Source: an uncultured Planctomycetia bacterium (GTDB lineage: Bacteria > Omnitrophota > Gorgyraeia > CAYWPX01). Taken from it: a DNA stretch of 64,000 nucleotides. Under the pieces are notes generated by a model. That model ran no database searches and was not told the origin of the DNA. It saw only the letters and a program-made list of their open reading frames with translations. Of this stretch, positions 14,451 through 56,880 are shown piece by piece. The stretch lies in assembly GCA_964460615.1 (NCBI GenBank), contig CAYWPX010000001.1, forward strand, positions 120,073-184,072. The letters run 5' to 3'. Position 1 is the first letter of the stretch, and the number at the start of each line of letters is the position of its first letter. The translations under genes were made by a program, and so were the position numbers.

Positions 14451-14504
14451 TGGTAAATTCAATTTCTCTTGCATAAAAAGTCAGATATGTTATAATTTAA
14501 AAAT

Positions 14505-15809
14505 ATGATTAAAAATGTTGCTCCGAGAGAACTTATACAAAGCGATTTCCAAATCCTAAAATCCGCAGAAAGGCTCAATACAACTCCTGAAATTGAAGAT
14601 ATAATCTTCATGCAATCTCTGGAGGGCCGTGCCCATAATGGTGCGGGTGCTTTTCATAAGAGGTCCTATGTCAACACCTCTATAGATGATATAGTAAAGG
14701 CATTAGGCAGAAACCCCGCTTTGATCAAGTCGAAGCGCCAAGCGCTCATTGACGATATAGTCGATTATGCGAAAGCGATTATTAATGGAGAGCGCCGTGA
14801 CATGCTTATTAATGATAAAGGCTCCCCTTTTCTCGGTATCCCTGACTTTAAGACTCGTAAGGTTAATCCGCATGATATTCTTAAGGGCCTTTTTATGGGT
14901 GGCCTGAGGGATGATGCTGAGATACGTAAAACTACCGAATATAAATATAATGTCAAAGTCGGTTGCGGAAAATGCTATTTAGTCAACGCCAGGATCATGG
15001 AAAGCTTGGGCCTTGACGGTGAAATTTTAGCGCATCAGGCGCATGAGGATGATATAGAGACTTATGTGGCCAATGGTTTGATAATCAATCCCGAAAGGCT
15101 TTACGAAGCCCATGAGGATGAGATAAAATATTTTTATATAAGGCACAGAATCGGGCCCGGTCAATCTGATGATGCGGCTGTTGTGGCTAGCGGGATGATA
15201 TATAATTCCGATGTTGCTATCGGCGTATTTCTGGCTGACGCGATCGATACCCTGGAAAAGTATGCACCGAATTATTCAGACCAGGATAATGACCTTGCTT
15301 GTTATATTAAAGAAAATTATGATGCTCTTGATATCTCTTATGATGAGGTTTATGAGCTGGCTTATTTAGCGGCTATACCCGAAGGAAGAGAGGAAGAGGT
15401 TCCGGATAGTTCTATGAGGTATCTATTAACAGTCGATCCGGTAACTGGACAATCGACCATTGAAAGCCATCTGAATTTTGTAGAAGGCAGGCCGTATTAT
15501 CCTATGGCGATCAGCTATAAGAGGATCCTGATAACAGATTTTTATGATTATATAAAAGACAAGGTAAGGCGTTCCAAGGTCCCTTCCGAGAGTGAGCCAA
15601 AGGAACTTTTGATCGAGGGTTTGAATAAATCCGTAAAAGAATTAATGAAAAAGAATGTGGTAGTTGTTTCCCCGAACGTGACTCTGGAGGAAGCGCTAAG
15701 CAAGGTAAGGGATACAAGAGTTGAGATAATTGTTGTGCAGGATGCTAATAAAAAAGTTATCGGAGTTATTAATCCGGATGATTTTTTATATTTACTTAGG
15801 AGAACCTGA
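14505..15809 (+). CDS. hypothetical protein with C-terminal CBS domain
   Basis: 434 aa; N-terminal ~370 aa unrecognised; C-terminus VVVVSPNVTLEEALSKVRDTRVEIIVVQDANKKVIGVINPDDFL is CBS-like. Confidence 0.6.
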   Translation: MIKNVAPRELIQSDFQILKSAERLNTTPEIEDIIFMQSLEGRAHNGAGAFHKRSYVNTSIDDIVKALGRNPALIKSKRQALIDDIVDYAKAIINGERRDMLINDKGSPFLGIPDFKTRKVNPHDILKGLFMGGLRDDAEIRKTTEYKYNVKVGCGKCYLVNARIMESLGLDGEILAHQAHEDDIETYVANGLIINPERLYEAHEDEIKYFYIRHRIGPGQSDDAAVVASGMIYNSDVAIGVFLADAIDTLEKYAPNYSDQDNDLACYIKENYDALDISYDEVYELAYLAAIPEGREEEVPDSSMRYLLTVDPVTGQSTIESHLNFVEGRPYYPMAISYKRILITDFYDYIKDKVRRSKVPSESEPKELLIEGLNKSVKELMKKNVVVVSPNVTLEEALSKVRDTRVEIIVVQDANKKVIGVINPDDFLYLLRRT

Positions 15810-52971: not shown

Positions 52972-53178
52972 ATGGATTCGTGCAAAAATTATAAAAAGAA
53001 TTTAGAAAAGTGCGCCTGTACCTATTCTTCCTGTTCCAGAAAAGGATATTGCTGTGAATGCGTAAGCTATCACAGAAGTAACAACGAAATACCGGCATGC
53101 TTTTTTAATAGTTCATTTGAATCGACCTATGATAGATCCGTTAACAATTTTATAAAAATGGTTAAGGGCAATAAATAA
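52972..53178 (+). CDS. small cysteine-rich protein (8 Cys in 68 aa)
   Basis: CKNY...CACTYSSCSRKGYCCEC...ACFF; family name not verified. Confidence 0.5.
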   Translation: MDSCKNYKKNLEKCACTYSSCSRKGYCCECVSYHRSNNEIPACFFNSSFESTYDRSVNNFIKMVKGNK

Positions 53179-53255
53179 GGTAGTTATGGTTAGTTTTGCT
53201 TTTTGAGCAAAACTACCTTAAACATGACACCTAAAATAAAGGAGGTGATTCATAA

Positions 53256-53501
53256 ATGGCAACAAAAGTAGCTAAGGTAGGAGTAAAAAGGGAGAAGGGT
53301 TTCCTTTACTTCATTGATAAGAATGGAGACGTTTCCAAGGCTAAGATGGCAAGAGGCAAGCAGAAAGGCGGCAAACCTCAGAAAGTAGCCAAGGTTGGCG
53401 TAAAGAAAGAAAAAGGATATCTCTATTTCCTCGATAAGCAGGGTGACGTTTCCCAGGCAAAGATGGTCAGAGGCGGTAAGAAAAAATCCAAAAAAAGATA
53501 A
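53256..53501 (+). CDS. small basic protein with two internal ~35-aa repeats
   Basis: KVAKVGVK[RK]EKG[FY]LYF[IL]DK[NQ]GDVS[KQ]AKM[AV]RG occurs twice; nucleotide copies differ mainly at third codon positions; AAGGAGG SD. Confidence 0.55.
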   Translation: MATKVAKVGVKREKGFLYFIDKNGDVSKAKMARGKQKGGKPQKVAKVGVKKEKGYLYFLDKQGDVSQAKMVRGGKKKSKKR

Positions 53502-53529
53502 TATTTTATCTTTTGTAGTATAAAAAAAG

Positions 53530-53575
53530 AACAGGTTTCCAAGAGATTAATCTCATGGAAACCTGTTTTTTCTTT
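53530..53575 (+). terminator. intrinsic terminator
   Basis: AACAGGTTTCC-loop-GGAAACCTGTT followed by TTTTTTCTTT. Confidence 0.7.
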
Positions 53576-53580
53576 AAAGC

Positions 53581-53609
53581 TTGCAGTAAAACCTCCTCTA
53601 AGGTATAAT
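53581..53609 (+). promoter_or_regulatory. sigma70-type promoter, predicted leaderless transcript
   Basis: TTGCAG-17 nt-TATAAT; the -10 ends 6 nt before ATG 53616. Confidence 0.5.
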
Positions 53610-53615
53610 TTATTT

Positions 53616-53969
53616 ATGAAAATAATAATAGATTTTATAACTCTTAATGAATTAAACCAGATGGCTCAAGCGATGTTTGGGGATATGGTTAAGGCTGTTG
53701 TTGATATAGATAGAGAGATTATAGCTCTTGATGCTGAACTTCATTCGGATCTTGAGGCATTACTTATTAAGGATGGTTCGAAGCAGAAAAATCTTTGGGG
53801 AATCAATTTTTATCCAGTTGTTGAAGGGGATGATTTTGTAGAATTTGATTCTTTAATTAATATCCGCCCATCTCAAGGCAATAAAAGCCGCAGCGTAGAT
53901 GACCTATCAATCCGAAAAAAAATTCTGGAAATCGTAGCAAAAAAGGTAAAAAATGAGTCTTCAACATAA
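53616..53969 (+). CDS. DUF5674-like small protein (recalled family resemblance, unverified)
   Basis: 117 aa; VKAVVDI...ELHSD.EALL..DGSKQ..LWGINFYP...FDSLINIRP..GN.SR pattern. Confidence 0.55.
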   Translation: MKIIIDFITLNELNQMAQAMFGDMVKAVVDIDREIIALDAELHSDLEALLIKDGSKQKNLWGINFYPVVEGDDFVEFDSLINIRPSQGNKSRSVDDLSIRKKILEIVAKKVKNESST

Positions 53970-54285
53970 AGATCTTGCCGCTGGACGCTGGAAAGAAATG
54001 TCTTTTGTGGACCAGATGGCAAATATCGGTAGCGAGGTTGAAAGGGCGTTAAACTGGCGAGCAAAGAATAATGCTTCTTTAAGCCAAAAAGCTCTTGAGC
54101 GTGCATTGGAATTATTGGATCTTTCTTTGGATGCAGTCAGTGAGATGTCGCGCCTTAAAGAACTGGCTCGTATACGCGAAACTATGGTAGATTTTTTTAT
54201 CGGCACAAATGAATTTAAGTCTAGCGAAATATTATGGAAAAGGTATTTTTTGCCGTTTGCCTATGCTTCCCGCCTGAAACATTAA
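53953..54285 (+). CDS. hypothetical protein, translationally coupled to upstream gene
   Basis: 110-aa ORF overlapping the previous gene by 17 nt; predicted helical. Confidence 0.5.
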   Translation: MSLQHKDLAAGRWKEMSFVDQMANIGSEVERALNWRAKNNASLSQKALERALELLDLSLDAVSEMSRLKELARIRETMVDFFIGTNEFKSSEILWKRYFLPFAYASRLKH

Positions 54286-54323
54286 TTATTAGACCTAAGC
54301 TATCAGCCTTTAGCGCGATCACT

Positions 54324-54491
54324 AGCACAAGAACACATGAGCACAAGACACAGGAGTACAAGTACACAAGATCACTCGTCGCAAGTTTAAAGCTTTTACC
54401 GGTGCTCTTGTGACTGGTGCTCTGGTGACAGCAACGTTGGAGCCCTGGTGTCCTAATTATGCTGATAGCTGATTTCTGAAAACTGAAAGCT
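54324..54491 (+). repeat. composite intergenic array: 8-nt CACAAG-type units, partly complementary GGTGCTC units, then GCTGAWA heptads abutting the start codon
   Basis: AGCACAAG AACACATG AGCACAAG ACACAGG AGTACAAG TACACAAG; GGTGCTC TTGTGAC TGGTGCT CTGGTGA; GCTGATA GCTGATT TCTGAAA ACTGAAA GCT. Confidence 0.7.
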
Positions 54492-54496
54492 AAAAA

Positions 54497-55648
54497 ATGG
54501 ATAAAGTTAGACTTATTGCTACATCGACATTCGGGCTGGAAGCTATGGTTAAGCGTGAGCTTAGCAATCTCGGCTTTTATGACACGACCGGTGCTGATGG
54601 AAGAGTGGAATTCGACGCTAACTTAGCTGATATCCCGCGTTTAAATATAAATCTAAGAACTGCCGATAGAGTACTCTTAAAAATAGGTGAATTTAAAGCA
54701 TTTGATTTCGGCGAGCTTTTTGACGGGACAAAGGTACTTCCCTGGGAAGATTGGATACCTAAGGACGGTAAGATAAATGTCAGCGGTAAATGTGTCAAAT
54801 CTACTCTAATGAGTGTGCGCAGCTGTCAGTCGATAGTCAAAAAAGCTATTGTCGATAGATTAAAAGATAAATTAAAGACTGATTTGCTTCCTGAGTCTGG
54901 CCTGGAGTTTGGTATTCAGGTAGCAATGCTGAAGGATGCGGCTTTACTTACGCTAGATACTTCCGGAGCAGGGTTACACAAACGCGGCTATCGAACAGAA
55001 TCCGGTGAAGTTCCTATGCGAGAAAATCTTGCAGCTGCACTTGTAATGCTAAGTTCCTGGAAAAAAGATAAATTGCTCATAGATCCTATGTGCGGCTCAG
55101 GGACCATCCTCATAGAAGCCGCTATGATAGCCCGGAATATTGCTCCCGGATTAAAGCGTAAATTTGCCTCCGAGGATTGGCCTAAGATTGAAAAAAAGTA
55201 TTGGGACGAGGCGCGTAAGGCCGCTCGAGAGGCCATTAAGACCGAGGGGGTTTTAAATATTCTAGGTTTCGATATAGATCCGGATAGGATAAGGGATTGT
55301 AAGATTAACGCCAAAAATGCCGGAGTAGATAAGGACATAGTTTTTGAGGAAAAAGATATCAGAGAACTAAGGATAGATAAGCCGTCCGGCTATATTATCT
55401 CCAATCCTCCGTATGGTGTTGAGATGGGGACATTAAAAGAGTTGACGCATTTATATATCCTGATCCACAATATGTTTCGAAAGAAACTCGGCTGGGCAGT
55501 TTATATAATAACCGCAGATAAAAGATTTCCGGATTTTTTTAAACGCGCTAAACCTGACAGGGTAAGGAAGCTATTTAACGGTGGCCTGGAGGTAAATTAT
55601 TATCAGTATTTTGCAAAAGAGATAGAAAAGAAGGCAACTAGCTCATAG
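54497..55648 (+). CDS. THUMP-domain class I SAM-dependent RNA methyltransferase (RlmL/COG0116-like)
   Basis: N-terminal THUMP-like region; methyltransferase motifs IDPMCGSGT and ISNPPYG. Confidence 0.8.
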   Translation: MDKVRLIATSTFGLEAMVKRELSNLGFYDTTGADGRVEFDANLADIPRLNINLRTADRVLLKIGEFKAFDFGELFDGTKVLPWEDWIPKDGKINVSGKCVKSTLMSVRSCQSIVKKAIVDRLKDKLKTDLLPESGLEFGIQVAMLKDAALLTLDTSGAGLHKRGYRTESGEVPMRENLAAALVMLSSWKKDKLLIDPMCGSGTILIEAAMIARNIAPGLKRKFASEDWPKIEKKYWDEARKAAREAIKTEGVLNILGFDIDPDRIRDCKINAKNAGVDKDIVFEEKDIRELRIDKPSGYIISNPPYGVEMGTLKELTHLYILIHNMFRKKLGWAVYIITADKRFPDFFKRAKPDRVRKLFNGGLEVNYYQYFAKEIEKKATSS

Positions 55649-55711
55649 CTCATTGCTCATAGTTCATAGTAAAAGCAATAACTGAAAGCTGATAGCTGAT
55701 AGCTGAAAGCT
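55640..55711 (+). repeat. heptad array pair: (AGCTCAT)x4 overlapping the stop codon, spacer, (GCTGAWA)x4
   Basis: AGCTCAT AGCTCAT TGCTCAT AGTTCAT ...17 nt... ACTGAAA GCTGATA GCTGATA GCTGAAA GCT. Confidence 0.75.
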
Positions 55712-55731
55712 AATTTGATAGGAAATAAAAA

Positions 55732-56072: not shown

Positions 56073-56765
56073 ATGACTAAAGAAATTCTATCCAAAGATA
56101 TACCAGCACCGAAGCTTATCAGATCCCGAAGGCGAAGCATCGCCTTGGAAGTCAGGCATGACGGCACCCTTGTAGTGAGGGCGCCGCATTTTCTTCCGGA
56201 TGCCCAAATACGAGAGTTTATTAGTAAGAGGCGCGCTTGGATAGATAATGTTTATAATCGTACACGTGAGAAGTTGCAATTATTTAAACCTAAGCAATTT
56301 GTTAATGGTGAGAAATTTCTTTATCTAGGCAATGAGTATACTCTGCATATAACCCAGGATATGGACGGTAAGTTTCTTTTTGAAAACCAATTTATACTTA
56401 ATGAACGGTATATAGCTAAAGCAAAAATACTCTTTGAGCGTTGGTATAGACAAGAGGCATTTATGCTTTTTACCAAAAGATGCAAATGCTATGCTCAATA
56501 TATGAGTGTAAGCTATAAAAGTATCAGTCTATCAAATGCCAAACACCGCTGGGGTTCATGCTATCCGAATGGAGGGCTTGGATTTAATTGGCGTTTAGTG
56601 ATGGCGCCGGAATGCATTATTGATTATGTAGTTGTGCATGAATTGGCGCATCTGGTTGAGGCCAATCACTCTAAACGGTTTTGGGCGCTAGTAGAAAAAA
56701 CGTTTCCAAATTATAAAGAAGCAAAGTTATGGCTAAGGGATAATCAACATAGGCTTAAGATATAA
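56073..56765 (+). CDS. YgjP-like M48-family metallopeptidase (DUF45/SprT-like, HExxH)
   Basis: HELAHLVEANHSKRFWALVE zinc motif; 230 aa. Confidence 0.8.
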   Translation: MTKEILSKDIPAPKLIRSRRRSIALEVRHDGTLVVRAPHFLPDAQIREFISKRRAWIDNVYNRTREKLQLFKPKQFVNGEKFLYLGNEYTLHITQDMDGKFLFENQFILNERYIAKAKILFERWYRQEAFMLFTKRCKCYAQYMSVSYKSISLSNAKHRWGSCYPNGGLGFNWRLVMAPECIIDYVVVHELAHLVEANHSKRFWALVEKTFPNYKEAKLWLRDNQHRLKI

Positions 56766-56880
56766 GCTCATAGCTCATGGTTCATAGCTCATACTAGAAA
56801 TAGTACGCAGTACACTGTACAAAGTACACAGTAAAAACATTACTTGTGTTCTGGTGACTGATAGCTGAAAGCTGACGACT
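56766..56880 (+). repeat. heptad arrays: (GCTCATA)x4, (AGTACAC)x5, GCTGA-type units
   Basis: GCTCATA GCTCATG GTTCATA GCTCATA; AGTACGC AGTACAC TGTACAA AGTACAC AGTAAAA; GATAGCT GAAAGCT GACGACT. Confidence 0.75.

Follow-up and report, generated by a model that had tools for sequence, protein, structure and literature searches.

Two small overlapping genes in a 64,000-nucleotide stretch of contig CAYWPX010000001.1 (hereafter the window), from an uncultured bacterium that GTDB places in the Omnitrophota, raise the question of what kind of unit they form. A sequence-only reading had proposed that the pair, a DUF5674-like gene followed by a gene for a small helical protein, is a leaderless operon of the form typical of toxin–antitoxin (TA) and other stress or defence modules. 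We found that the locus is a self-contained two-gene cassette (Table 1) in which the pair, and not its surroundings, is the conserved entity, and that DUF5674 is never found intact without a small helical partner. The anatomy that had been proposed was confirmed and its interpretation in part, leaving the proposal as a whole partly supported and its TA suggestion neither proven nor refuted; we slightly favour a TA-like reading over a non-toxic heterodimer linked to RNA or translation.

The 117-aa product of the first gene matched the Pfam profile PF18924 (DUF5674) at 125.5 bits (E = 1.1e-36) over profile positions 3-108 of 109. With membership defined as a score above the gathering cut-off of 27 bits together with near full-length coverage, it is a full-length, high-scoring member of the family to which the sequence-only reading had assigned it. 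Omnitrophota-type relatives number at least 7996 at E ≤ 1e-3, and a cyanobacterial subfamily comprises 2889 clusters, on chromosomes as well as plasmids. Residues that are invariant in an alignment of 27 Omnitrophota-type sequences include H43, G54-S55, W61-G62 and R84-P85-S86-Q87, and a hidden Markov model made from this alignment still recognises distant members. The partner, 110 aa long, belongs to a family of 3101 relatives at 65-75% identity (1607 clusters at 50% identity), with a pI of 9 and nearly invariant Arg, Glu and Trp residues.

The two genes are found together from either direction. In a partner-anchored set (80 loci of genomes that each represent a species, most of them from Omnitrophota and a few from other phyla, plus other loci), DUF5674 lies directly upstream on the same strand in 84 of 89 partner matches, and the partner follows directly in all 80 DUF5674-anchored metagenome loci with room for it, which establishes the proposed two-gene operon as a co-occurring pair. 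The pairing is kept in distant members, among them one on a high-GC contig and one of 37% identity, and the pairwise identities of DUF5674 and its partner are correlated (r = 0.71). Most of the 74 junctions are of the ATGA type, with a 4-nt overlap (56), and ten overlap by 1 nt; the 17-nt overlap that had been read between the 117-aa and 110-aa frames is present, occurs only twice, the window's case included, and is atypical for the family. A counterpart of the window's AAGG, AAAAGGAT, is kept in most related junctions. Four open reading frames (ORFs) of the representative library (P0255, P0293, P0325 and P0352) combine segments of DUF5674 and the partner in a single frame; we read these as probable deletions, recombinants or chimeras, which may stem from further decay or from assembly errors, and drew no evidence from them.

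The flanking genes of related modules, by contrast, form no conserved neighbourhood: the 75 downstream neighbours represent 90 Pfam families and the 72 upstream ones 81, no family occurring in more than three loci, and modules of about 80% identity can have unrelated neighbours. Two metagenome-assembled genomes (MAGs) each carry two divergent copies, 68-85% identical. On a high-GC metagenome contig (L088, 547-2975), the pair lies between a weak Xre_MbcA_ParS_C match and a FitA-like RHH plus PIN (VapBC-type) pair; an additional 180-aa gene there, without a Pfam family, overlaps the partner's end.

Loss within the cassette is one-sided. DUF5674 is damaged in 8 of 83 partner-anchored loci by in-frame deletion, excision, truncation or frameshift (L081 was excluded from this count because of an assembly gap), whereas the partner is intact in 80 of 80 DUF5674-anchored loci (Fisher test, 8/83 vs 0/80, p = 0.0066). 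In-frame internal deletions leave a mini-ORF that ends at the usual overlap in L013, L043 and L085; DUF5674 is reduced to a C-terminal remnant or short ORF in L003 and L033, 5'-truncated in L001/L010 and frameshifted in L023. The cleanest case is L036 (3950-4003), where DUF5674 has been excised exactly and TTGCGA-17-TATAAT-6 nt abuts the partner's ATG, making the partner a leaderless-type first gene. After deletion the mini-ORF or promoter stays in register with the partner in L013, L043, L085, L033 and L036.

A similar asymmetry is seen in cyanobacteria, where DUF5674 (37-44% identity) occurs on 33 plasmids, several with more than one match. In 11 of 11 plasmid loci and one chromosomal locus it is followed by an overlapping gene for a 118-124-aa protein without a Pfam family, which tblastn with the Omnitrophota-type partner does not recognise and which is acidic (pI 4.5 vs 9.0 in Omnitrophota). 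The profiles of the two partner types align marginally (hhalign, P = 0.006-0.007), and their homology is only suggestive. Four of the 11 plasmid loci have a split, truncated or unannotated DUF5674, and the downstream gene is intact in all 11; pooled with the loci above, the counts become 12/94 vs 0/91 (p = 0.0003). We infer that the partner is lineage-specific and would be required wherever DUF5674 is intact, and that DUF5674, with its invariant His and RPSQ motifs, would be the constant, enzyme-like component of the cassette. In three loci on Nostocales plasmids (L181-L183, about 550-1450), the gene directly preceding DUF5674, co-directional and ~45 nt away, encodes a hypothetical protein of ~250-300 aa, perhaps a third component conserved in cyanobacteria.

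As the sequence-only reading had remarked, no known toxin or antitoxin resembles either protein: searches of NCBIfam, PADLOC, PHROGs and PDB sequences and profiles with both returned no match beyond DUF5674, and the partner has none in Pfam. The partner, helical as had been supposed, is modelled as a five-helix bundle (pLDDT 90), and FliS-type and other small helical-bundle chaperones or adaptors are listed among the closest known systems. DUF5674 has a predicted alpha/beta fold (pLDDT 79.5) for which Foldseek found nothing in the PDB at E ≤ 0.001, and a profile search of PDB sequences gave no match. To our knowledge, the Pfam entry for DUF5674 records neither a function nor a partner, and a literature search of a limited paper collection found no mention of DUF5674 or PF18924; neither the obligatory partner gene downstream nor the leaderless arrangement discussed below seems to have been described before.

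Two comparisons with known folds arise from these models. The strand-strand-helix-strand-strand-helix order of DUF5674, with the invariant His at a helix N-terminus, appears to be the same as that of PHPT1 when the two secondary-structure orders are compared, and hhalign pairs AELHSDLEALL with the PHPT1 catalytic AEYHADIYDKV. On this evidence DUF5674 might be a distant PHPT1/Janus-type phosphohistidine (P-N bond) phosphatase with the partner as its substrate or regulator, which we consider the least probable of the readings discussed here: the hhalign probability is 0.3%, PHPT1 is not retrieved by Foldseek against the PDB and the PDB profile search is empty, the cyanobacterial DUF5674 examined (EKHAF) lacks the motif's Asp45, the model confidence is only 79.5, and no significant profile or structural similarity that includes the catalytic His was found. 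The second comparison is with MNT-HEPN, likewise a ~110-aa alpha/beta protein, a 4-nt overlap and a ~110-aa helical-bundle protein; here, however, the G[GS]/DxD motifs expected in the first protein and the Rx4-6H motif expected in the helical protein were not found, and both the MNT-HEPN and the MazG-like readings were ruled out on motifs and fold matches.

A further property is shared by part of the family and concerns how the cassette is expressed. In the window, the first gene of the pair has no Shine-Dalgarno sequence. It has the arrangement TATAAT-6 nt-ATG, as the sequence-only reading had pointed out, and its mRNA is probably leaderless and bicistronic. That reading had called the promoter near-consensus, which describes the perfect -10 box and not the -35 hexamer: TTGCAG matches only 3 of the 6 positions of TTGACA (the E. 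coli consensus), which is why a generic sigma-70 scan made no call. We take the promoter to be real because of its comparative conservation. Exact TTGCAG-N17-TATAAT occurs once in the 64 kb, and upstream of many modules CTTGCAG-AGGGCTTTTTGTTGAGG-TATAAT is found, separated from the start codon by 6-7 nt. Of 137 non-redundant modules, 45 have a -10-like box whose end is 6-7 nt from the start, with any other spacing found in at most five, and such a start-abutting box exceeds chance; TTGCAG is the hexamer 17 nt upstream of the -10 box in 22 of these 45 leaderless-type modules. Among the 65 ORFs of the window, only four have a -10 box abutting the start. Other modules have a Shine-Dalgarno sequence or overlap the preceding gene, and the leaderless design was not seen in cyanobacterial members.

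In the leaderless-type modules the -35 hexamer is often enclosed in a hairpin of as many as 18 bp with an A-tract and a U-tract on its flanks (z about -5), and compensatory changes in 5 of 12 stem pairs indicate that this hairpin acts as an RNA terminator and not only as a DNA palindrome. The window follows the same logic as these promoter-inside-terminator modules, with its terminator placed 4 nt upstream of the -35 hexamer. This upstream terminator had been noticed from the sequence; its hairpin has a dG of -27.8 kcal/mol (z = -8.2, 0 of 200 shuffles as stable), is followed by UUUUUU, and was missed by a generic terminator scan owing to that scan's loop and mismatch rules. With leaderless mRNAs the cassette shares a -10 box 6-7 nt from the start codon and the lack of a Shine-Dalgarno sequence; it differs in that only about a third of modules have this predicted design. 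Elsewhere in the window, a second candidate for a leaderless or very short-leader transcript (TTGCAT-16-TATAAT-8 nt-ATG, 14468-14507) precedes a 434-aa ORF (14505-15809), suggesting that TTGCAx is the usual -35 hexamer of this genome.

Other copies of the cassette are packed against tRNA genes, in the manner of tRNA-punctuated transcripts. Genes for tRNA and tmRNA are 12-fold denser within 400 nt of modules than further out (20 in 100 kb vs 8 in 499 kb, p = 2e-10), and all 20 of those adjacent to modules, with at least eight tRNA identities, are co-directional. The 3' end of a tRNA-Lys lies 9 nt before the DUF5674 ATG in L129, a tRNA-Ser begins 1 nt past the partner stop in L017, and a tmRNA lies 63 nt upstream in L132; with spacers of 1-9 nt, some copies must share a transcript with tRNAs, from which tRNA processing would release them. 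No tRNA gene is present in the window.

The anatomy has good support, as an insulated and translationally coupled cassette whose mRNA is probably leaderless: the sigma-70-type promoter close to the first ATG should make the transcript start at or next to the start codon, the upstream terminator insulates the unit, and ribosomes ending DUF5674 would reinitiate on the overlapping partner gene. As to function, tentatively and at somewhat less than even chances, we read the cassette as a TA-like pair of effector and neutraliser with DUF5674 as the effector; the first gene would encode a toxin-like effector and the second its cognate neutralising or binding partner. The linkage of the cassette to tRNA operons leads us to guess that the target may be related to RNA or translation. 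Obligate pairing, cassette behaviour, plasmids, paralogues and the TA-rich L088 locus favour this reading, as does the fact that DUF5674 is constant yet can be lost, and that its partner varies yet is retained. With type II TA systems in which the toxin comes first (higBA, hicAB, mqsRA), the cassette has in common small, adjacent, co-directional and overlapping genes kept as a pair, strict co-occurrence, independence of context, occurrence on plasmids and in several copies, and repeated loss of the first gene with retention of the second. The likeness extends to mycobacterial TA transcripts, which are often leaderless (PMC3898074), and in M. tuberculosis predominantly so (PMC3898074, PMC8485053).

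Several observations weigh against a TA-like function. Both proteins lack a DNA-binding domain and show no homology, in sequence or in fold, to any known toxin, antitoxin or defence protein, and 95 partner members contain no HTH, RHH or AbrB domain; a DNA-binding antitoxin with autoregulation from its own promoter, as in type II TA, was not found. Many copies have no promoter of their own and lie inside housekeeping or tRNA operons, which is hard to square with a classic autoregulated type II system; the pair is embedded, for instance, in an FTHFS-pair-FTCD_C-FolD-MTHFR operon, and in some loci directly precedes dnaJ. The charges of the Omnitrophota proteins, acidic for the upstream and basic for the downstream one, are opposite to those that toxins and antitoxins usually have. 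Orphan partners score like paired ones, from which the partner may have a function of its own. Both proteins evolve at a housekeeping-like rate: DUF5674 and partner are 91% and 86% identical where DnaJ is 90% identical, 82% and 82% where 3-dehydroquinate synthase is 86%, and their mean pairwise identities over 137 modules are 67% and 63%. At least 556 matches in a one-genome-per-species set, almost all of them in Omnitrophota, suggest a near-core gene pair and not a patchy addiction module; 2.9 million viral contigs of IMG/VR yielded one match only, and the Omnitrophota-type partner had no match in phage or plasmid records. Signs of mobility (variable context, paralogues, cyanobacterial plasmids) stand beside vertical descent at the pace of housekeeping genes and a high frequency among Omnitrophota.

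The main rival is a heterodimer that is not toxic and has a lineage-specific housekeeping role linked to RNA or translation, which we regard as a serious possibility, if a doubtful one. The basic helical protein would be its core (for example an RNA or tRNA binder) and the acidic DUF5674 a dispensable regulatory or catalytic accessory, with leaderless or tRNA-punctuated expression tying synthesis to stable-RNA transcription. Slow evolution equal to that of DnaJ and 3-dehydroquinate synthase, prevalence in Omnitrophota, a strong and conserved promoter, embedding in housekeeping operons, the charge pattern and the lack of a DNA-binding domain all speak for such a heterodimer; so do the co-directional tRNA and tmRNA enrichment, the high pI and nearly invariant residues of the partner, and its retention, by sequence still expressed, after DUF5674 loss. 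It accounts poorly, however, for a supposedly dispensable DUF5674 that is conserved across phyla while the supposed core is swapped in cyanobacteria for an unrecognisable, oppositely charged protein, and it is also opposed by multiple plasmid copies and frequent pseudogenes in cyanobacteria, by divergent paralogues inside a single MAG, and by the lack of any conserved functional neighbourhood except tRNAs.

The cyanobacterial loci also bring to mind a two-gene phage-defence or abortive-infection system whose effector is restrained until infection, as they place a small autonomous cassette on conjugative plasmids, in some cases near nuclease, NERD and XRE genes, and as paralogous copies exist. 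This is very unlikely: there is no PADLOC match, defence genes are not enriched among 147 immediate neighbours, the proteins evolve slowly, unlike arms-race genes, and virtual absence from viral contigs gives no sign of counter-defence relatives. A more specific version of the TA-like reading seems to us unlikely, though less so than phage defence. In it, DUF5674 would be an enzyme of unseen fold acting on tRNA or the translation machinery and restrained by a fast-diverging helical partner, forming a domesticated TA-like regulator nearly universal in Omnitrophota and co-transcribed with tRNAs or leaderless, so that it would be translated when canonical initiation fails.

If the cassette is TA-like, it would bring a toxin fold not seen before and an example that spans a phylum, as a new family within a known kind; if it is not, an unknown tRNA-linked function is indicated. 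Although Omnitrophota are uncultured, homologous pairs exist in tractable cyanobacteria (Nostoc punctiforme, with the pair NPUN_RS34590/RS34595 on pNPUN01, and relatives of Anabaena/Nostoc PCC 7120), which opens the choice between TA and housekeeping function to simple experiments. In either case, about one-third of the cassettes have a -10 box abutting the start and a conserved promoter-inside-terminator layout, with a predicted leaderless mRNA.

Table 1. Features of the two-gene cassette and its immediate flanks (window coordinates).
Feature	Position	Strand	Remarks
Upstream gene, 81 aa	53256-53501		Very basic protein made up of two ~37-aa repeats, KVAKVGVKxEKGxLYFxDKxGDVSxAKMxRG; strong Shine-Dalgarno sequence; no Pfam family
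Intrinsic terminator hairpin (A-tract, stem ~20 bp, U-tract)	53521..53576	+	Predicted from RNA fold to close the 81-aa gene and insulate the cassette
-35-like hexamer TTGCAG	53581..53586	+	Direct sequence reading
-10 hexamer TATAAT	53604..53609	+	17-nt spacer from -35; 6 nt (TTATTT) to ATG at 53616
DUF5674 gene, 117 aa, pI 4.8	53616..53969	+	PF18924; mRNA probably leaderless; candidate effector or catalytic subunit
Shine-Dalgarno-like AAGG	53943..53946	+	Within the 3' end of the DUF5674 gene; 6 nt to partner ATG
Reading-frame overlap, 17 nt	53953..53969	+	Putative translational coupling zone; from the ORF table
Partner gene, 110 aa, pI 9.0	53953..54285	+	Predicted five-helix bundle, uncatalogued family; candidate cognate binder or neutraliser
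Composite repeat and inverted-repeat region	54286-54482		Downstream of partner gene

The sequence-only reading had taken the composite array downstream of the partner as the other boundary of the unit. The repeats are there, built of 8-nt CACAAGA-type repeats, their complements and a GCTATCAGC/GCTGATAGC clamp and folding as one long hairpin of ~190 nt (z = -2.8), but they are not part of the unit. The same motifs recur at 55640-55712 and 56765-56875, which marks the array as a genome-specific intergenic repeat family and not a part of the cassette; its copies follow three consecutive genes, those for the partner, an RlmL-like methyltransferase and a YgjP-like peptidase. The family is composed of AGCTCATAG / GCTATCAGC units, CACAAGA or GTACA 8-nt repeats, complements and GCTGATAGCTGAAAGCT, and an Rfam search of 53000-55000, which covers the first copy only, gave no match. 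We rejected the array as a third component, such as an RNA antitoxin, given its recurrence in two nearby intergenic regions, the empty Rfam search and its lack of conservation across modules. A similar GGTACAAGAACAAGGGTGCAAG run follows the partner gene in L064 and L081.

One subclade (L018, L021, L058, L062, L066, L069 and L073) has a conserved block of its own in the first ~130 nt past the partner stop, laid out as AATCTYACTTATAAATTTATCTCT, ~60 variable nt and AGAGATAyAGTTATT..ACACCAACACGGGGAG. The block, present in ~10 of 127 modules, matches no Rfam family, has a 7-bp long-range pairing only, and is followed in L018, L021 and L069 by a hairpin of the terminator/promoter type. On the other side of the cassette, the pair in L044, too, has a relative of the 81-aa protein, 41% identical, shortly before it.
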